Notes under the pieces: generated by a model
Seen by the model: only the letters and a program-made list of their open reading frames with translations
What the model was told of the DNA's origin: nothing
Database searches by the model: none
Shown here: positions 1 to 37,478 of the stretch, one piece after another
Layout of the letters: each line of letters begins with the position of its first letter
How positions within the stretch are numbered: the first letter of the stretch is position 1
Source of the DNA: a virus
Length of the DNA stretch: 37,478 nt
Virus record (IMG/VR): IMGVR_UViG_3300045988_123091
Span: 1 to 37,478 of that record
Direction: 5' to 3' (one strand)
Made by a program: the position numbers and the translations under genes

Positions 1-55
1 CAAACTTCATTTTATGCACCTCCTTCATTTGACATTTAAAGTTTAACTTTATTAA
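1..55. repeat. Terminal direct repeat, copy 1 (identical to 37424..37478); the contig closes on itself
   Basis: The first 55 nt (caaacttcattttatgcacc...aactttattaa) recur exactly as the last 55 nt of the window. Confidence 0.95.
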
Positions 56-3656: not shown

Positions 3657-5150
3657 TTATTTGAACAACTTGAAAATCTTTTCAACAATTTTTAGGATCA
3701 TCTCGATAATTTTATTGATGCCATTCACGTTGATTTGTTCTTTATCTGTTGAATCATCTTGTTTCGGAATATCTTCAGATGGCTCTTTTTCTTCTTCCTT
3801 TACCGGACTAGATGCATAGAAGCTCACGTCGTGATAGATTACATTCTTATCAAGTGGAGTTGATGTGTATTGGTGCATAACTGCTTTATCTGATTGATCA
3901 GACTGAATCTCTCCGTCATTCGTTCCCCAGTTTGCAACCCACAATGGATGGTCTGTATCTACATACGTTCCAATCCATGATGTAGAAGTATATACACCGG
4001 TGTAATATCCTTTTTCTTTTAGAATATCACAGAATATTTTGCATGAGCGAGTACATCTGTCTTTTGTTAGGATTCCATTCTTTTGTTTATAGTGGTCGGC
4101 ATCTTCCATGTCGAACCACACGCCTAATTTAACATCAATATTCTTTAATAAATCTAAAATGTAGTTAGCTTCTGCTTTTGCCTGTTCATCGTTCAATGCA
4201 TAATCATATAGGTAAACGCCAAAAGGAACATTTGCATTAACACATTTCTGTACGTTCTCTGCAAATTGACTGTCCGTGTGTTCTCCATAAGCTGCACGAA
4301 TAATCACAAAATCATATTTTGATACGTCAATATTCTTATTGTGCTCAGAGATGTCGATTCCGTACCCTTTTACATTTTTTGTGTAATTTGGCTTAGGTTC
4401 GACTGGATCAGGAGCTTTTACATCCTCTTTTTTCTCTTCAATTGCAGAGAAAATGGCCCATACATCCTTTCCGTGAACTTCAGAGTTTGAAATGGCCATA
4501 AACTGAGTTTTATCTTGGCTCACTACATAACGATGACCGTTTGCGACTACTTTATAGTAGTATTCAAATTTATATCCTGAGTTCACTCGCTTTAATACTT
4601 TACCGGTTGGAGACCCTTCACGAATCGCAACAGAATCCACAGTAAGTGTTGCCACTGCGTGCTCCTCGACTAAATTAGATGGATTGTACACAGTAATTGC
4701 AGTGCTAGATGTTGGATGACTGTATCCCTTGAAATGTAACACTCCACAAGAACCGTTATAGGATAATGTTTGAATGTTAGCAGGAGATAAGTTTGTTCCT
4801 TGGTTCATGCCTAAGAATTGTCCTGTTCCGTTACCGTTGTCTTTAATCAGCATAGCAACATGGCCATAATAGACTCCGTTGTACCAACCATATACCGAAT
4901 CCCACACGAACCAATCGCCAGGATGGCCAATTTGTTCGAAATTAAAATAATCACCATATCCAAGTGCTTCTCTTCGATGCCAAATTTCTCGAGCACCTCC
5001 AGAGCCACCAATCGCTCTTCCTGGGTTAGGATATCCGGCTTTCTTCAAGAACTCTTTAAAAAGAGTAACGCACTGATTGTAGTAGCCACCTAGGCTAGAC
5101 GATTTGCCTAGCCATTCATTTTGAAAATCATCTTTTGTGAAGTAGTTCAT
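3657..5150 (-). CDS. Endolysin: N-terminal CHAP peptidase, central SH3-like region, C-terminal GH25 muramidase
   Basis: CHAP Cys/His pattern (YNQCVTLFKEF...YYGHVAMLI). GH25 pattern (KGYGIDISEHNKNID...VIIRAAYG...VPFGVYLYDYA...VWFDMED). Sits immediately after the holin. Confidence 0.85.
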   Translation of the reverse strand: MNYFTKDDFQNEWLGKSSSLGGYYNQCVTLFKEFLKKAGYPNPGRAIGGSGGAREIWHRREALGYGDYFNFEQIGHPGDWFVWDSVYGWYNGVYYGHVAMLIKDNGNGTGQFLGMNQGTNLSPANIQTLSYNGSCGVLHFKGYSHPTSSTAITVYNPSNLVEEHAVATLTVDSVAIREGSPTGKVLKRVNSGYKFEYYYKVVANGHRYVVSQDKTQFMAISNSEVHGKDVWAIFSAIEEKKEDVKAPDPVEPKPNYTKNVKGYGIDISEHNKNIDVSKYDFVIIRAAYGEHTDSQFAENVQKCVNANVPFGVYLYDYALNDEQAKAEANYILDLLKNIDVKLGVWFDMEDADHYKQKNGILTKDRCTRSCKIFCDILKEKGYYTGVYTSTSWIGTYVDTDHPLWVANWGTNDGEIQSDQSDKAVMHQYTSTPLDKNVIYHDVSFYASSPVKEEEKEPSEDIPKQDDSTDKEQINVNGINKIIEMILKIVEKIFKLFK

Positions 5151-5723: not shown

Positions 5724-6618
5724 ATGCTATATTCTGACAAATTAACATCCTGGTTAAAGGAGAAGAAAATCTATCTAAAATACAGCACTTATACGAATTA
5801 TTGTAATGTGATTATGAATCACATAATGCCTGACTTAGGCGATTATCAAATTGAAGAATTGAATAACGACATCCTCCAGGAGATGATTCTTAAGAAAATT
5901 GAATGTGGCCGTAAAGATGGAAAAGGTGGCATATCATTTAAATATGCGAAGGACATCATTCAATTATTAAAATTTACACTTCCGTTTAAAGTCGAAATAC
6001 AATTACCGTATCATCCACCTAAGGCGGTCGAAATTTTTTGATAAAGAGAATCAAATAACATTGATTAATCACCTCCAATCTGAAATCAACTATAAGAACT
6101 TTGGCATTCTTTTGTGCATCCACACTGGCATCCGAATTGGAGAACTGTGCGCTCTTAAGTGGAGTGATATCAATGTCCAAAGTAAATTGTTAAAAATAGA
6201 TAAAACAATGATAAGAACGTATACAAAAGAAGACGGTAGTCACTTATATGTGACACCACCTAAATCGAGATCAAGCACACGTATGATTCCATTGAATACG
6301 TGGATTATGTATTATGCGATACTACTTCAAGGTGAAGAAGATAATTACATATTAACTAATCGAGATAAACCGATAGAGCCTAACAAATATAGGCTTTACT
6401 ACAATAGAATTCTGAAAGAACTTGAGCTACCACATCGTAAATTCCATGCACTCAGACATACATTTGCGACAAGGTGCATTGAATGTGGATGCGACTACAA
6501 ATCATTAAGTGAATTACTCGGCCATTCAAATGTATCAATTACTATGAATATATATGTCCACCCACAAATGGAATTGAAGCGAAAATGCGTCGAGCTGCTT
6601 TGCGATTACTACAAGTAA
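5724..6618 (+). CDS. Shufflon-associated tyrosine recombinase, reading frame interrupted at a T6 tract (6034-6039)
   Basis: The 5724-6041 ORF encodes an N-terminal SAM-like/core-binding domain. The 6061-6618 ORF carries the catalytic residues: TGIRIGEL (Arg), HALRHTF (H-x-x-R), GHSNV, NIYVH (Tyr). The second frame is open back to 6001 and reads ...KFFDKENQITLINHL. One T fewer would join the two as ...KAVEIFDKENQITLINHLQSE. The gene ends 2 nt before crossover site S1. Confidence 0.8.
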
Positions 6619-6620
6619 AT

Positions 6621-6633
6621 GTATGTCTTTTAC
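6621..6633 (+). repeat. Crossover site S1 (GTATGTCTTTTAC)
   Basis: 13-mer at the start of cassette A. Confidence 0.8.
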
Positions 6634-6943
6634 TGCCAACAAAACAGACGGTACTTATTGTAAAAAGATTACTAAAGATAATATTCCAAATTACATGTTA
6701 GGAAAAATTCCGGCTATTGTACCGACAAATCACTTTGATTGGGATAACATTGGCGTTTACGGCGAAGTTCTAGGAAAAATCCCTAAAGGTGAATTTGGTA
6801 TAAAACCGTATTCTGAAAATAGGGTTGTAGGAGACGACTCTGTAAACCAATATGGTTGGCGTTTAATGACAGATGGAAAGAATGAACCGTTAAATGTTAT
6901 ACAGCCTTTTATTGTCACTTTCTTTTGGAAGAGAGTCAAATAG
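6623..6943 (+). CDS. Silent tail-fibre C-terminal cassette A (class lacking the HxH motif)
   Basis: MSFTANKTDG...IPNYMLGKIP...QYGWRLMTDGKNEPLNVIQPFIVTFFWKRVK. Most similar to cassette G. Confidence 0.75.
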   Translation: MSFTANKTDGTYCKKITKDNIPNYMLGKIPAIVPTNHFDWDNIGVYGEVLGKIPKGEFGIKPYSENRVVGDDSVNQYGWRLMTDGKNEPLNVIQPFIVTFFWKRVK

Positions 6944-6944
6944 C

Positions 6945-7220
6945 CTATTTTATTCGGCGCCAAAAATATACTACAATATAAGGCTGAATATTGTTGTGCT
7001 TATTGTTTTTACCTTCATCCAAAGTTCTAGCTGTCCAGTAATACCCGGGTGATATTTCCATTTCTGATTGATACGTTGAATATTTATTGTCTATCTTTGT
7101 TGTTCCGTTAGTAGTAGAAGTGCGGTCACCTTTTACCGTTGTGTGACTATGAGCAGGCATTTCTTCTACCTTCAATTTATGACTGTATTCTCCACCACTG
7201 CTTTCGGCCGTAAAGGACAT
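6945..7220 (-). CDS. Silent tail-fibre C-terminal cassette B
   Basis: MSFTAESSGGEYSHKLKVEEMPAHSHT...KHNNIQPYIVVYFWRRIK (second half of a tail-collar-type domain). Confidence 0.75.
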   Translation of the reverse strand: MSFTAESSGGEYSHKLKVEEMPAHSHTTVKGDRTSTTNGTTKIDNKYSTYQSEMEISPGYYWTARTLDEGKNNKHNNIQPYIVVYFWRRIK

Positions 7221-7222
7221 AC
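7210..7222 (-). repeat. Crossover site S2 (GTATGTCCTTTAC on the minus strand)
   Basis: 13-mer at the start of cassette B. It is 18 bp from S3, in divergent orientation. Confidence 0.8.
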
Positions 7223-7240
7223 TTTTAATTAAGCTTATAT

Positions 7241-7253
7241 GTATGTCCTTTAC
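7241..7253 (+). repeat. Crossover site S3 (GTATGTCCTTTAC)
   Basis: 13-mer at the start of cassette C. Confidence 0.8.
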
Positions 7254-7500
7254 TACAAATTCTCAAGGCGGAGAATATAGACATAAGCTAGATATTTCAG
7301 AAATGCCTAAGCATGATCATGGACTAGCTTTATCTTCGACTGGTCAATTGCAAGACGACTTTAATGATGCGGTTAGTTCTGACTGGACGGAAAATTATAG
7401 GGTGAATAATAATTCTATATACAATAATACAGGTGAAGATAAGCCACATAATAACATTCAACCGTATATTGTTACGTATTTTTGGAAAAGAACTATTTAA
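7243..7500 (+). CDS. Silent tail-fibre C-terminal cassette C
   Basis: MSFTTNSQGGEYRHKLDISEMPKHDHG...PHNNIQPYIVTYFWKRTI. Closest to the currently expressed cassette. Confidence 0.75.
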   Translation: MSFTTNSQGGEYRHKLDISEMPKHDHGLALSSTGQLQDDFNDAVSSDWTENYRVNNNSIYNNTGEDKPHNNIQPYIVTYFWKRTI

Positions 7501-7795
7501 CCCTTTTCCAAAATGTAACAGTAATATATGGTTGAACATTGTTGTGATGCACATCGTCTCCTGACGAACCTGCTTGCACAAACGCAGATACCTTTGTAGC
7601 ATTAACTTTTTCTTCTGGAATAACATAGTTTTTAGTAGTGTAGTCTATCATTACTCCATATTTATTTACTATTTGTTCTTCCCAACCAGAACTCCCTTTA
7701 GCCATCAAAGACATATCATGATTGTGCTTAGGCATTTCTGATTTGGTTAACTGATGTTTATATTCTCCACCGATTGAATTTGACGTAAAAGACAT
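7493..7795 (-). CDS. Silent tail-fibre C-terminal cassette D
   Basis: MSFTSNSIGGEYKHQLTKSEMPKHNHD...HHNNVQPYITVTFWKRVK. The track ORF runs on to 7816 through fortuitous upstream codons. The 3' end overlaps cassette C by 8 nt. Confidence 0.75.
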   Translation of the reverse strand: MSFTSNSIGGEYKHQLTKSEMPKHNHDMSLMAKGSSGWEEQIVNKYGVMIDYTTKNYVIPEEKVNATKVSAFVQAGSSGDDVHHNNVQPYITVTFWKRVK

Positions 7796-7797
7796 AC
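7785..7797 (-). repeat. Crossover site S4 (GTATGTCTTTTAC on the minus strand)
   Basis: 13-mer at the MSFT start of cassette D. Confidence 0.8.
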
Positions 7798-8082
7798 CTA
7801 TGCGATACGCTTCCACATATAAACCACTAAATAAGGTTGCATAATATTATGGGGAGTGCTGCCTCCAACAGCGCCTGTCTTAGCTGGCGAATCTATAGTT
7901 TTATCAAATTTAGCTAATGAATATAGATTTACACTATTTCCTTGACCTGTTCCGTATCCCCAGCCTATTGCTACATCACCATTATGGTCAGCGTATAAGG
8001 CATTATGATAGTGGCTAGGCATTTCTCCCTCCGTAAGTTGATGCAAATACTCTCCGCCTGTTGAATTAGGTGTAAATGACAT
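7798..8082 (-). CDS. Silent tail-fibre C-terminal cassette E
   Basis: MSFTPNSTGGEYLHQLTEGEMPSHYHN...PHNIMQPYLVVYMWKRIA. Confidence 0.75.
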   Translation of the reverse strand: MSFTPNSTGGEYLHQLTEGEMPSHYHNALYADHNGDVAIGWGYGTGQGNSVNLYSLAKFDKTIDSPAKTGAVGGSTPHNIMQPYLVVYMWKRIA

Positions 8083-8084
8083 AC
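8072..8084 (-). repeat. Crossover site S5 (GTATGTCATTTAC on the minus strand)
   Basis: 13-mer at the MSFT start of cassette E. It is 18 bp from S6, in divergent orientation. Confidence 0.8.
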
Positions 8085-8102
8085 ATATAATCATGAGTCA
8101 AA

Positions 8103-8115
8103 GTATGTCATTTAC
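8103..8115 (+). repeat. Crossover site S6 (GTATGTCATTTAC)
   Basis: 13-mer at the MSFT start of cassette F. Confidence 0.8.
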
Positions 8116-8383
8116 AACCGGATGGATTGGCGGAAGCTACGAGCATAAATTAACTAAAGAAGAACTTCCACCTCATTATCACACATTGCTTGATATTCCT
8201 TCTGAATCTGGAAGTGCTATTAGTGGAAATAGCAATGACGAACTTTCATACGCAAGAATTACAGAACGAGCGGATTCAACTAAGAAATATTGGATAAGCA
8301 AAACAACGGAAGAAGGTAGCGGACATGCTCACAATAATATGCAACCTTGGATTGCAGTGCTGTTTTGGAGAAGAGTCAGCTAA
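8105..8383 (+). CDS. Silent tail-fibre C-terminal cassette F
   Basis: MSFTTGWIGGSYEHKLTKEELPPHYHT...HAHNNMQPWIAVLFWRRVS. The 3' end overlaps cassette G by 8 nt. Confidence 0.75.
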   Translation: MSFTTGWIGGSYEHKLTKEELPPHYHTLLDIPSESGSAISGNSNDELSYARITERADSTKKYWISKTTEEGSGHAHNNMQPWIAVLFWRRVS

Positions 8384-8687
8384 TTCTCTTCCAAAAGGCG
8401 ACTGTGATAAATGGTTGTAGATTGTTATGAGGCTTATCTCCTCCGTTTGTATGGATTGACCATCCATATTGCGTCCCGCTATTCCTATTCATTTCACTTA
8501 TAGTTTTAACCCCTATTTTATCTGAAGACGCTTGCCCCATTTCCGTCGGCACTATTCCGTTATTTGCCCACTTAACATGTGTGCTTGGAACAGGGACGGC
8601 GATGTCACCAATATAATAATTTGGAATTTCGTTTTGATTAAGTTTATGAGTGTATTCTCCACCGATTGATTGGGAAGTAAATGACAT
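8376..8687 (-). CDS. Silent tail-fibre C-terminal cassette G (class lacking the HxH motif)
   Basis: MSFTSQSIGGEYTHKLNQNEIPNYYIGDIA...QYGWSIHTNGGDKPHNNLQPFITVAFWKRIS. Confidence 0.75.
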   Translation of the reverse strand: MSFTSQSIGGEYTHKLNQNEIPNYYIGDIAVPVPSTHVKWANNGIVPTEMGQASSDKIGVKTISEMNRNSGTQYGWSIHTNGGDKPHNNLQPFITVAFWKRIS

Positions 8688-8689
8688 AC
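8677..8689 (-). repeat. Crossover site S7 (GTATGTCATTTAC on the minus strand)
   Basis: 13-mer at the start of cassette G. Coordinates are anchored on the ORF-track start at 8687. Confidence 0.75.
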
Positions 8690-8696
8690 ATACACA

Positions 8697-9521
8697 TTAT
8701 TTTGTGCGCATCCAAAAATATACTGTTGTATATGGCTGAATGTTATTATGCGGATTGTTTCCTCCTTCTCCATATACAGGGTTATCGTATTTTTTGTAAT
8801 TTTTTGACCATTTAGAGCTAAGTGCATTGCTATAGAATTCTTGTGATCCGCTGTCGTCAAATAAAGCAATCCCATGAGTATGTTTCGGTATTTCAGAAAT
8901 AACTAATATATGCTTATACTCGCCTCCGACTGAATTGGCTGTAAATGACATACTTGTACTACCATCATTTCCAGTACCTTCGCCAATCAAAGTACGACCT
9001 TGTCCGAACTGCTCCCAAGTACCTCCGATAAAGTTTCCGGGGTTGTTTTTATCAGCTGTGATATAAACTGAACCTACTGGATACATTGCATCTAGAATCT
9101 CACGAACCTTCTTTTCAGTCGTGTAATTACTTAATTTGTTTTCCATGTATTGGTCAACTAACTGTTGCCAGTTGTGTTCGCCAGGATCAACCATACTAAC
9201 TGCATTTGGAGCTTCTTTAACTTCAAGTGTAACTTGGTTTGTAACTAACTCGGTTGTTCCTTTAATTAAATGCACTGCCAATTCCAATGATCCAACGTTG
9301 GCCATTGCTTTACTGTGAATTGTATATACATTATTGCCGCACGGAAGAATCTCTTTGTAAACTTTTCCGTTGGCAGAATACTTCATATGAATCTGTTCTG
9401 TGTAATCTGCATATTCATCGCTTGAATCGTGCGCAAGTGTTACTGGAACATTGGCAGAACCTTGCGATTCATCCAATCCTTTTGTAACAGATAATTTTAA
9501 ACCATTTCTAAATAATTCCAT
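8697..9521 (-). CDS. Tail fibre / receptor-binding protein with C-terminal tail-collar-type domain (constant part 8954-9521, current cassette H 8697-8951)
   Basis: AGGAG RBS. Follows Dit, Tal and the CHAP protein. YPVGSVYITADKNNPGNFIGGTWEQFGQGRTLIG...GGEYKHILVISEIPKHTHG...PHNNIQPYTTVYFWMRTK matches the phage tail collar (PF07484-like) pattern from memory. Confidence 0.8.
   Translation of the reverse strand: MELFRNGLKLSVTKGLDESQGSANVPVTLAHDSSDEYADYTEQIHMKYSANGKVYKEILPCGNNVYTIHSKAMANVGSLELAVHLIKGTTELVTNQVTLEVKEAPNAVSMVDPGEHNWQQLVDQYMENKLSNYTTEKKVREILDAMYPVGSVYITADKNNPGNFIGGTWEQFGQGRTLIGEGTGNDGSTSMSFTANSVGGEYKHILVISEIPKHTHGIALFDDSGSQEFYSNALSSKWSKNYKKYDNPVYGEGGNNPHNNIQPYTTVYFWMRTK
8941..8953 (-). 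repeat. Crossover site S8 (expression site), in frame inside the tail-fibre gene
   Basis: GTATGTCATTTAC on the minus strand encodes ...S-M-S-F-T... at the junction between the constant 190-aa N-terminal part and the current C-terminal cassette. Confidence 0.8.
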
Positions 9522-9535
9522 TGCATATCTCCTAT

Positions 9536-10021
9536 CTAAACGTAGTTTGTTCCAACTACGATTCCATTTACTAATGTAAGCTGTAATTTCTTTTTAATAA
9601 CTTCTGAACCGCCACCGACATAACATTTTGGTCTGAAATAACCTAATGGCGCAGTTCCGATTGATAATAAATTAAATGGTCCTCCATACGTACCACCACT
9701 ACTACCTTGGTTTTGCCCGAAATATTTACCATTGTAATACATGGCTACGTGGCCGTAACCACCACCCATGTTTGAACCCCACACGGCAATATCACCATTT
9801 TGAGGAGAGCCCACAACATTACATGAATTTAACATCCCATTTGATGCTCTTTGCGTCCAAATATCCTTAGCACCACCACTAGCGGTACAATGCGCATATG
9901 GATATCCTAACCATTTCATGTAGAATGCATACCCATCCCAACATTGAGCACCATAAGCACCGTCTACATCATGACTTGTGCCATTGTATGTATTAACGAA
10001 TACAGAAAAGGGTTGAGCCAT
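9536..10021 (-). CDS. CHAP-domain peptidoglycan hydrolase in the tail module (virion-associated lysin candidate)
   Basis: GAQCWDGYAFYMKWLG (Cys) ... NGDIAVWGS ... GYGHVAMYYNG (His). Lies between Tal and the tail fibre. Confidence 0.7.
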   Translation of the reverse strand: MAQPFSVFVNTYNGTSHDVDGAYGAQCWDGYAFYMKWLGYPYAHCTASGGAKDIWTQRASNGMLNSCNVVGSPQNGDIAVWGSNMGGGYGHVAMYYNGKYFGQNQGSSGGTYGGPFNLLSIGTAPLGYFRPKCYVGGGSEVIKKKLQLTLVNGIVVGTNYV

Positions 10022-10022
10022 A

Positions 10023-11906
10023 TTACTCAACCCCTGTCACGATTCCTGATCTAGTAGTTACCGACTTTGTAACAGTATATGTACCTGTTAATCCGGTTTT
10101 ACCGTTAATCTTTATCGTGCTCGATGTTTTACTTAACGAAATCTCATTATTATCAGTGATAATATCAACTCCGTCTTTTGAAACTTTAACTTTATTACTG
10201 CCGTTCGACATACTGACTGAACCGTCACTGTCCACGGATACACTCGCATCCCCACAAATTAATTTAATACTGTGAGCTACGTAGCTACCATTAGACTTTA
10301 CAGAACGGAATGCAACTTTTTCAGGCAGTGTGTTTCCATTAGAATCAATAGCTTTGATATCTGCCCAAACAGAACCTTGAGCGACTCCTTCGGCACGTGG
10401 CTGCATGTTTATTTCGGCACCAACGTTTATATCCTTGACAGTATTTAGAACTCCTTTAAATGTGCCGTCGTTCATTATCAGTTCACCGGTGTCCATATTT
10501 AAATGGAATTTACCGTTCTTATCCGATAAAACACCTGTCAAAATATAGTCTGCAATAATTGAATTGTAATTGATTGCAGTACCCCATTGCCAATTTCCTT
10601 TTTCATCAACAGTATGTGCTATCTGAATTCCTTGAGTTCCTAGGGATAAAGCACCATACATATCCGCAATAGGATCAGTGTCTTCGAACAGAATCGCACG
10701 AACGTCTGACTTTGTCGCATTGTCTTTTTGAGCTTTCATCTGTGTGTTCATCATATTGACGATTCCTTTTATCATCTCCGCATGAACAGACGAATCTTTA
10801 ATATCAATAGCTTTTTCAACACTTCTTTGAATATCAGCCTGCTTATCAAAGAAAGACGGAACTACATCTCCAATCGTCAACGAATCCATTCTCTGACTGA
10901 TACAATCATATTTAATAGACTTAACACGAGCTGTTGTATCAATATCCAAACGTCTATTTCTGACTTTGACTGTATCACCTAAGTTTAATTTCAATAAGGA
11001 TTTAAACTCTGCATACTTATCCGATCTGGATAAATCAAAAACAGATACATTGTATTCAATTGAAGGCCTATCAATCTGATTTTCTTCAAATTCTTTTTTA
11101 GCAGCTTTTCGTAATTCATCACGCAATGAATCGATTGAATCACACACAACATCACCATCTTGAGGTTCGCCACTTACATCACTAGCTAACTTGATGTAGT
11201 CATATGTGATTTCTGAAATAAAGTCTTTAGGGTATTTGTTACGTAACGGACTATCTACAAACTCTCCTTCTGGGAGTTGGTATCCATTGTATGCAACTGG
11301 TCTGATACGCGTTACTGTGCTACTGAAGTCAATCTTTTCTTCGATTTCATTCATATTGAATCCGAATTCTACACGCATTCCATTATCGGCGCCGATGCGG
11401 TCGTAAATATAAATGTCATAGTTGTCATATCTGACTTCGCCACCCCATCTGCTTAAGAATGAATTGTCATCGTCTGAACCAATGCACTCAAGTACATTCT
11501 TTCTTATCCAATACGCAGTAGATTTCACTCCAATATTGGAATGGCCATTATACTTTGTGCCATTCAACAATGTACTTAATGCCGTTTGGCCATCACAGTT
11601 GGTAGGACGTTTATCATAAATAAAAGTGTCATTCTTTGCATCCAAGAATATTGGATATGCATTGACTGACACTTCAAATTTGTTTTTATCTTTTGAATAA
11701 ATGCGGAATAACTGTGCTCCGTAAGGAGTTCTTACTCTTACAACTCCATTATCTTCTATATCTTTCCAATGATCATCGGAATAAGGAACTGTCATAGACA
11801 ATTCCCATGTTCCGTTAATCGTAGCTTCAAATGGACATTCAGATGGATGCACTTCAATTCCGTTAACTGTGAAATCCGTTTGAGATGCATGATAGATTTG
11901 AATCAT
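10023..11906 (-). CDS. Tail-associated lysin-like / minor structural protein (Tal, prophage tail endopeptidase family)
   Basis: 627 aa, immediately after Dit. N-terminus (MIQIYHASQTDFTVNGIEVHPSE...) is typical of siphophage Tal N-terminal regions. Confidence 0.7.
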   Translation of the reverse strand: MIQIYHASQTDFTVNGIEVHPSECPFEATINGTWELSMTVPYSDDHWKDIEDNGVVRVRTPYGAQLFRIYSKDKNKFEVSVNAYPIFLDAKNDTFIYDKRPTNCDGQTALSTLLNGTKYNGHSNIGVKSTAYWIRKNVLECIGSDDDNSFLSRWGGEVRYDNYDIYIYDRIGADNGMRVEFGFNMNEIEEKIDFSSTVTRIRPVAYNGYQLPEGEFVDSPLRNKYPKDFISEITYDYIKLASDVSGEPQDGDVVCDSIDSLRDELRKAAKKEFEENQIDRPSIEYNVSVFDLSRSDKYAEFKSLLKLNLGDTVKVRNRRLDIDTTARVKSIKYDCISQRMDSLTIGDVVPSFFDKQADIQRSVEKAIDIKDSSVHAEMIKGIVNMMNTQMKAQKDNATKSDVRAILFEDTDPIADMYGALSLGTQGIQIAHTVDEKGNWQWGTAINYNSIIADYILTGVLSDKNGKFHLNMDTGELIMNDGTFKGVLNTVKDINVGAEINMQPRAEGVAQGSVWADIKAIDSNGNTLPEKVAFRSVKSNGSYVAHSIKLICGDASVSVDSDGSVSMSNGSNKVKVSKDGVDIITDNNEISLSKTSSTIKINGKTGLTGTYTVTKSVTTRSGIVTGVE

Positions 11907-37217: not shown

Positions 37218-37433
37218 TTAAACTTTTTCGGTAAAAAAATAATATCCTACTTGGTCTTTCGGGATACTCAACATATCGCAAATTTTAATAATATCATCTC
37301 GCGAAAACGGAGTTTTGCTTTGCATTTTACGTGACATCGTGTTTTCAGATGTTCCAAATGCTTCTGCAAATTGGTTTTGACTGCCGTATTTTTCAATCAT
37401 CTTTGCTTTTAAAGCGTTAAAATCAAACTTCAT
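37218..37433 (-). CDS. Cro-like XRE-family HTH protein
   Basis: GSQNQFAEAFGTSENTMSRKMQSKTPFSRDDIIKICDML. AAGGAGGTG RBS before the ATG at 37433. Divergent from the cI-like gene across the contig junction. Confidence 0.65.
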   Translation of the reverse strand: MKFDFNALKAKMIEKYGSQNQFAEAFGTSENTMSRKMQSKTPFSRDDIIKICDMLSIPKDQVGYYFFTEKV

Positions 37434-37478
37434 TTTATGCACCTCCTTCATTTGACATTTAAAGTTTAACTTTATTAA
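37424..37478. repeat. Terminal direct repeat, copy 2
   Basis: Exact 55-nt match to 1..55. It carries the RBS and start codon of the cro-like gene. Confidence 0.95.

Follow-up and report, generated by a model that had tools for sequence, protein, structure and literature searches.

The window analyzed herein is a stretch of viral DNA of 37,478 nucleotides (nt), positions 1 to 37,478 of IMG/VR record IMGVR_UViG_3300045988_123091. The subject of this study is the locus at positions 5724-9521 of the window, where a tail-fiber gene, an array of eight cassettes and a tyrosine recombinase gene lie next to one another. A 13-nt repeat, GTATGTCNTTTAC, was searched for across the window with up to 1 mismatch tolerated. 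Exactly eight copies were found, all with 0 mismatches and all within 6621-8953, and none elsewhere. Shuffling gave an expectation of 0.26 copies, and 0 of 100 shuffles reached eight. The outermost copy, S1 (GTATGTCTTTTAC), lies on the plus strand at 6621-6633, 2 nt past the stop codon of the recombinase. The repeat search placed S2 (7210-7222), S4 (7785-7797), S5 (8072-8084) and S7 (8677-8689) on the minus strand, and S3 (7241-7253) and S6 (8103-8115) on the plus strand. S8 (8941-8953, minus strand) is the expression site and lies within the fiber gene at codons 190-194. Two pairs of sites, S2/S3 and S5/S6, stand head to head and are separated by 18-nt spacers (7223-7240 and 8085-8102, respectively).

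Every site heads one open reading frame (ORF) of 84-106 codons that starts with MSFT, and the ATG lies inside the 13-mer. These are the eight segments that had been described in an initial annotation of the locus, and their common start was borne out by the repeat counts. Seven of the cassettes are silent: A (6623-6943, plus strand, 106 amino acids (aa)), B (6945-7220, minus, 91 aa), C (7243-7500, plus, 85 aa), D (7493-7795, minus, 100 aa), E (7798-8082, minus, 94 aa), F (8105-8383, plus, 92 aa) and G (8376-8687, minus, 103 aa). The eighth, H (8697-8951, minus, 84 aa), is expressed as residues 191-274 of the fiber. The silent cassettes are packed in head-to-head or in tail-to-tail fashion, and the convergent pairs C/D and F/G overlap by 8 nt. 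No Shine-Dalgarno sequence was found upstream of any of the seven silent cassettes, whereas the fiber gene (GGAG) and the recombinase gene (GAGG) each have one. Promoter-like sites were not enriched, with 12 found against 18.7 expected. The earlier description of these seven cassettes as promoterless therefore stands.

The pairwise identity of the cassettes is 31-54% overall and falls to 17-37% in the middle part, which is presumably the part that contacts the receptor. The two ends are conserved. The entry reads MSFT..GGEY..P.H.H, and its GGEY..P.H.H portion is present in six of the eight products. The end reads HNNxQPY..FWKR. A common C-terminal motif had been claimed with two deviating cassettes; the motif was recovered, but three cassettes deviate slightly from it, namely A (LNV for HNN), E (HNIMQP..MW) and H (FWMR). 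As a separate observation, cassettes A and G lack the P.H.H motif of the other six, with IPNYML and IPNYYI in its place, and are closest to each other in the middle part (37%). The sequences suggest that A and G form a second structural class of tip.

The fiber ORF (8697-9521, minus strand) is composed of 190 N-terminal codons with cassette H fused to them in frame through the 13-mer at 8941-8953, exactly as first annotated. The constant part, residues 1-190, is encoded at 8952-9521 and includes the first half of a fold like the T4 gp10 C-domain. Fiber residues 142-273 match Pfam Gp10_C (PF21939) with an E-value of 1.5e-25, and residues 137-272 match the T4 gp10 structure 2FKK with an E-value of 8e-9, in an alignment that spans site S8. 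By this homology, the crossover sits inside a folded domain, because the Gp10_C alignment runs across the site, and each cassette corresponds to the second half of the T4 gp10 C-domain-like fold. Each half-domain would consist of a variable insert between two conserved elements, the entry and a closing strand HNNxQPY..FWKR. An AlphaFold2 monomer of the fiber gave a predicted local distance difference test (pLDDT) score of 57 and a predicted template modeling (pTM) score of 0.34, which was too poor for a fold search.

The recombinase gene stays outside the invertible DNA, at the position where it had been annotated (5724-6618). An extra T, to which the initial annotation only alluded by calling the recombinase frame-repaired, splits it into two ORFs on the plus strand. 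The N-terminal fragment (5724-6041) carries the core-binding SAM-like domain (Pfam PF14659, E 2e-11) and ends at a premature TGA. The catalytic fragment (6061-6618) has the tyrosine recombinase fold (Pfam PF00589, E 6e-29). The +1 T insertion lies in a run of six T, referred to as T6 (6034-6039, plus strand), in the local context UUU-UGA. When one T was deleted from this run, both ORFs became continuous and encoded a 297-aa protein. In the repaired protein, the catalytic residues R137, K180, H241, R244, H267 and Y277 were all there upon alignment to Tn1549 Int, which is also the closest solved structure (E 2e-17). PF14659 and PF00589 are the only domains, and there is no arm-binding domain. 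None of the curated NCBIfam families scored above cut-off for the recombinase, and the sub-threshold matches were to generic Xer/integrase families only.

More than 100 related loci were collected from IMG/VR, from ENA/JGI metagenomes and from GTDB genomes, and their 257 cassettes fell into 63 types upon clustering at 85% identity. The recombinase adjoins the array in every relative examined, and the same 13-mer is retained in loci whose recombinase is just 65% identical. The frameshift was then compared among these relatives. At this site, 29 of 29 aligned relatives are one base shorter, and T6 is unique among the 30 sequences. ERZ501377, ERR209550 and SAMEA2042838 (loci L097, L102 and L114) share both the T6 allele and the cassette order of the window. 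The frameshift is therefore a real mutation, and an assembly error is excluded because the allele recurs with the same cassette order in other datasets.

Comparison of cassette order between relatives had been put forward in the initial annotation as a check on inversion, and it gave two different answers. Among the related loci, inverted arrangements were seen. In at least seven contig pairs, a block with a 13-mer at either end runs the opposite way while the flanks on both sides stay collinear (L060/L045, L086/L044, L151/L079, L055/L122, L133/L120, L048/L129 and L044/L157). For example, L133 (+36 -35) aligns to L120 (+35 -36) as 0..580 against 580..0, and L151 (+3 -6 -5 -1) and L079 (+5 +6 -3 -1) differ by a signed block reversal. 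Such signed block reversals are the pattern expected of site-specific inversion. Within the T6 lineage, the order was fixed, as it was identical in every independent dataset found (at least four datasets).

The module boundary was also seen at the site. The 190-aa constant N-terminus varies little (95-100% identity), and different samples show it fused, precisely at residue 191, the position of S8, to no fewer than 15 dissimilar C-termini. Four of the silent cassettes (C, D, E and G) have homologues that serve as C-termini of full-length fibers elsewhere, some with quite different N-terminal parts of 630-820 aa. A 91%-identical homologue of C is the expressed C-terminus of fiber P0259, P0136, P0272 and P0279 each have a homologue of E (85-88% identity) as their expressed C-terminus, and a 76%-identical homologue of G is the C-terminus of P0137. 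Homologues of D (60-67% identity) end precisely at the C-terminus of 630-aa DUF859 fibers. A homologue of A is the terminal cassette adjoining the recombinase in locus L001. When the protein search was run with a concatenated query (the constant part plus the eight cassettes), it returned the long DUF859 fibers and missed the close relatives, and its one use was to reveal cassette homologues at fiber C-termini.

The ends of assembled contigs were also informative. Of the 58 IMG/VR contigs with the exact junction, 33 end within 300 nt after a site, and 27 of these within 130 nt. The ends cluster at set offsets of 13, 55, 93 and 99 nt past the site start, and three contigs from metagenome-assembled genomes stop 15-102 nt beyond the recombinase stop. 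A 13-bp repeat alone cannot break an assembly; therefore, the breaks point to heterogeneous junctions in the sequenced populations. In one contig, L012 (the contig of L093; IMGVR_UViG_3300029777_000277), a block of two cassettes has the constant end on either side, once in each orientation (6133-6153 and 6748-6767), and the core is mutated (TTTGC) at the forward junction. Its appearance is that of a fold-back assembly in which both inversion states were mixed. Fibers P0261, P0263 and P0272 were looked up for a single sample with two alternative junctions, and each came from a different sample.

The site was further defined by comparing the 64 unique silent sites. Several non-coding or synonymous positions are conserved among them. 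GT precedes the ATG, position -2 is invariably A, and the upstream sequence has the consensus AGTnAAn. The phenylalanine codon is always TTT and never TTC, a count that covers 107 unique sites. Head-to-head cassettes have an ATG-to-ATG gap of 22 nt, i.e., 18 nt between the 13-mers. This spacer length was found in 21 of 23 pairs across the loci, and the spacer sequence is variable. From these alignments, a site of approximately 31 bp (about -9 to +21) would comprise the 13-mer core, about 9 nt upstream and a semi-conserved coding stretch downstream. Like the sfx site of R64, it would be asymmetric, with the core set between a degenerate left arm and a right arm lying over constrained codons. 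The variable base N of the 13-mer was examined as a pointer to the position of strand exchange, and it tracks neither cassette nor flank consistently.

These features can be joined into one mechanism. The late tail operon would read the 190-codon constant fiber segment into whichever cassette sits behind S8, and the remaining seven cassettes would be stored in both orientations without a promoter or ribosome-binding site. The adjacent armless tyrosine recombinase would pair two inverted sites and flip the DNA between them, and the flip would join a different tip of 84-106 aa to the fiber, with presumed consequences for host range. A pure-inversion model was applied to the present order (+H +G -F +E +D -C +B -A) and reaches 2016 arrangements. 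In this model, a single inversion suffices to bring F, C or A to expression, and two are required for B, D, E and G, which confirms the reachability first proposed for the plus- and minus-oriented cassettes. The count of eight cassettes is the highest among approximately 125 loci examined.

It is highly probable that a multiple-inversion system (shufflon) encoded by the phage is present at this locus, one that in this genome is most likely locked on H. The shufflon interpretation of the initial annotation thus holds for the family, where inverted blocks and swapped tips are found in relatives, but this genome itself is probably locked. Several points weigh against the shufflon interpretation. 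The inversions are known from comparison between relatives, and neither this genome nor any single population has shown one. The contig breaks could be partly due to co-existing strains instead of active flipping. Base N of the 13-mer varies among the sites (A, C or T), and if N falls in the crossover region, certain site pairs may recombine poorly. Direct repeats such as S7/S8 exist, and a shufflon must somehow escape deletion between such sites. Finally, the structural role proposed for the conserved cassette ends is drawn solely from sequence homology to T4 gp10.

Other origins of the array were also considered. Gene callers annotate each cassette as its own ORF from the ATG, and the cassettes could be independent small genes for paralogous tail-tip or chaperone proteins beside an unrelated recombinase, e.g., a second integrase. 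This is extremely improbable, since the cassettes have no Shine-Dalgarno sequence or promoter, the convergent ORFs overlap, the homologues are the exact C-terminus of full-length fibers, and one cassette makes up merely half of a Gp10_C domain; a separate arm-type integrase, distinct from the shufflon recombinase, is present at 1301-2449. Alternatively, the array could have arisen by duplication with ordinary homologous or illegitimate recombination, and the differences in arrangement could reflect horizontal exchange. The cassette sets do differ between relatives, so exchange and loss also happen, and L001 has only the terminal cassette in common with the window. This explanation is nevertheless very improbable, as the inverted blocks of at least seven pairs end exactly at the 13-mers, the non-coding positions of the site are conserved and contigs break at the sites. 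Furthermore, 13 bp is too short for RecA-type recombination. The low coverage of the scaffold (3.4x) and its old short reads raise the thought that the whole pattern is an assembly artefact. That idea has virtually no probability and is refuted, since the sequence and the order recur unchanged across independent assemblies and samples (ERZ501361, Logan ERR011289/90, ERZ501377, ERR209550 and SAMEA2042838).

A shufflon that is still active in this genome is a more serious rival, although it is considered unlikely. Intact recombinase with the same 13-mer specificity could be supplied in trans from a co-resident prophage, or +1 ribosomal or transcriptional slippage at UUU-UGA or T6 could yield a little full-length enzyme. 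In its favor, the 13-mer is conserved among phages with recombinases of 65-92% identity, one genome (MGYG-HGUT-03689) holds two loci, tRNA-Phe slipping by +1 between the overlapping UUU codons of UUU-UGA would give back the exact ancestral frame, and the frameshifted lineage persists in several people. However, the cassette order is the same in all datasets of the lineage, evidence that is itself limited as low-coverage assemblies would miss rare variants either way. No RF2-like stimulatory element was seen at the right spacing upon inspection of the sequence, and T6 is short for transcriptional slippage. A related thought is that the interrupted gene acts as a recoding throttle, in which translational recoding would set the expression of the invertase and hence the rate of host-range switching. 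It is conceivable because the slip of tRNA-Phe, or the loss of one U in transcription, restores the frame exactly and because phages from four or more human gut datasets retain the interrupted allele with no other damage; it is nonetheless improbable.

The shufflon of this lineage is thus most likely locked on cassette H, unless complemented in trans, because the recombinase is frameshifted and the cassette order is invariant across datasets. For the same reasons, the up to eight host-range variants predicted in the initial annotation are unsupported here. Two haplotypes of the T6 lineage were found, and they differ at eight positions over 12.8 kb. Of these differences, five are nonsynonymous and fall in the 255-nt cassette H (window positions 8754, 8792, 8800, 8870 and 8884; codons 23, 28, 51, 54 and 66), and three lie in the remaining 12.5 kb. 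Such clustering would be expected if H is the tip that serves in receptor binding, and it suggests that this tip is subject to selection or gene conversion. The five linked changes may be one recombination event instead of five mutations.

The surrounding genome was also characterized. An exact direct repeat of 55 nt is present at both ends of the window (1-55 and 37424-37478). Because of this terminal repeat, the window is a complete phage genome of approximately 37.4 kb that was assembled as a circle, and a prophage fragment is excluded. It matches ENA scaffold QINJ10-1_SAMEA728817, from a human gut sample. The gene order is terminase, portal, capsid, major tail protein, tape measure protein (TMP), Dit, Tal and a CHAP-domain protein, followed by the fiber, the cassette array, the recombinase, a holin and an endolysin. 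This layout (TMP, Dit, Tal, fiber) is a siphovirus-type tail module. The CHAP-domain protein between Tal and the fiber (164 aa; 9536-10030, minus strand) is probably a virion-associated cell-wall hydrolase. A CHAP-GH25 endolysin is encoded besides it at 3657-5150.

Recombinase relatives were found in genomes of Holdemanella, Floccifex and other Erysipelotrichaceae, and the phage is a gut phage of Holdemanella-type bacteria (Bacillota, Erysipelotrichaceae). A megablast search of the locus against GenBank phages gave no match, and no recombinase of more than 38% identity was present in the cultured phages searched. Bacterial genomes contributed further loci. The cultured isolate Firmicutes bacterium M10-2 (KE159692, 6869-9423; locus L107) carries a minimal version with a recombinase of 62% identity, in which one silent cassette converges on a 754-aa DUF859-type fiber and the junction reads MTFT, not MSFT. 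Erysipelotrichaceae bacterium MGYG-HGUT-03689 carries two recombinase loci (L105 and L106; 70% and 65% identical) with the same 13-mer, and recombinases that act across the loci of one genome are conceivable. More distant homologues were set aside. In two uncultured fecal phages, MT835594 (L112, 1576-2996) and MT837341 (L113, 1063-2502), recombinase homologues of 37-38% identity lie within near-perfect inverted repeats of 24-29 nt. These repeats flank the recombinase itself, so the two are a different kind of element, an invertible or mobile unit. The Bacteroidales loci L108-L111, from the set of distant recombinase homologues (32-40% identity), have neither the 13-mer nor the motif of the BV01-like phages described below.

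The family is common in human gut metagenomes, where more than 100 contigs carry the exact junction, and a single cluster of recombinases, formed at 90% identity, has 2215 members. It goes unrecognized in annotation, where its parts are called "integrase" and hypothetical proteins. The shufflon would account for many gut-virome contigs of these phages stopping at the fiber gene. The module boundary inside a gp10-like domain offers a natural blueprint for receptor-binding tip swaps. The frameshifted lineage provides a natural locked control, with its variation concentrated in the expressed tip, and a cultured relative with a two-cassette version exists in Firmicutes bacterium M10-2.

The locus was compared with known inversion systems. 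The classical case is the serine-invertase fiber switch, represented by Mu Gin/G, P1 Cin/C and the multi-segment p15B Min. These switches likewise provide alternative fiber C-termini and hence host range; however, they use a serine resolvase/invertase with an enhancer and Fis, whereas a tyrosine recombinase is used here. A serine-invertase switch is ruled out for the window, as the enzyme beside the array belongs to the tyrosine recombinases and its catalytic domain resembles that of Tn1549 Int. The gin shufflon of Enterobacter FR-phi is a further serine-invertase fiber shufflon (PMC13418256). The shufflon of R64/IncI1 was also compared. There, a tyrosine recombinase (Rci in R64) drives multiple inversions at short asymmetric sites (sfx) with one side well conserved and the other degenerate, the adhesin C-terminus alone is swapped, and 7-8 variants are obtained from approximately 2 kb. 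The difference lies in the target and in the site sequence, with a phage tail fiber here and the PilV conjugative pilus tip in R64. An R64-type target (the PilV thin-pilus adhesin) is ruled out because the target is the tail fiber in a siphovirus-type tail module.

Tail fiber proteins are among the enriched targets in a survey of programmed inversions (PMC9881135). In BV01-like temperate gut phages of Phocaeicola, a recombinase-flanked multi-cassette inversion region overlaps the tail-fiber gene at its distal end, and the region's activity is backed by read-level evidence (2026 preprint, PMC13596623). The two systems share the gut phage setting and the recombinase-flanked multi-cassette region at the distal end of the fiber gene. 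They differ in host phylum, in the site, which is the 10-bp motif TGGGAGAACT in the BV01-like phages, and in the cassettes, of which three give six isoforms there. The motif TGGGAGAACT was absent from all loci tested. In the literature searched, with subscription journals outside the scope, no description of such a shufflon in Bacillota or Holdemanella phages was found.

The closest match is the Rin shufflon, a phage tyrosine-invertase shufflon on the receptor-binding protein of Bifidobacterium breve and B. longum prophages (Mavrich et al. 2018, PMC6109161), also found in Eggerthella lenta prophages (PMC8778435). The statement in the initial annotation that the present arrangement is not a standard described system was thus overstated, as such shufflons have been known since 2018. 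The likeness is one of architecture. In both cases, an armless phage tyrosine recombinase lies at one end and the constant N-terminal part of a receptor-binding protein gene at the other, with several promoterless, dissimilar C-terminal cassettes between them, each behind a short asymmetric repeat. Inversions occur at the repeats in the Rin shufflon, and in the present family they are seen between relatives, with an unchanged order in the T6 lineage. The window has the armless recombinase, the constant N-terminus and the promoterless cassettes of this architecture. One Rin gene, in Bl30698phi1, is interrupted by a mutation too (PMC6109161). The differences are also clear. The host belongs to Bacillota (Erysipelotrichaceae) here and to Actinobacteria in Rin. 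The site is the 13-mer GTATGTCNTTTAC here and the 11-mer rix TTCCCTAACCC in Rin, and rix gave 0 matches in the window with up to 1 mismatch. The fiber is T4 gp10 C-domain-like here and TP901-1 RBP-like (receptor-binding protein) in Rin, the crossover here lies inside a folded domain, and there are eight cassettes here versus five. The design was already known from Rin, and the locus in this window is a further case in another phylum, which extends tyrosine-recombinase fiber shufflons from Actinobacteria to Bacillota.

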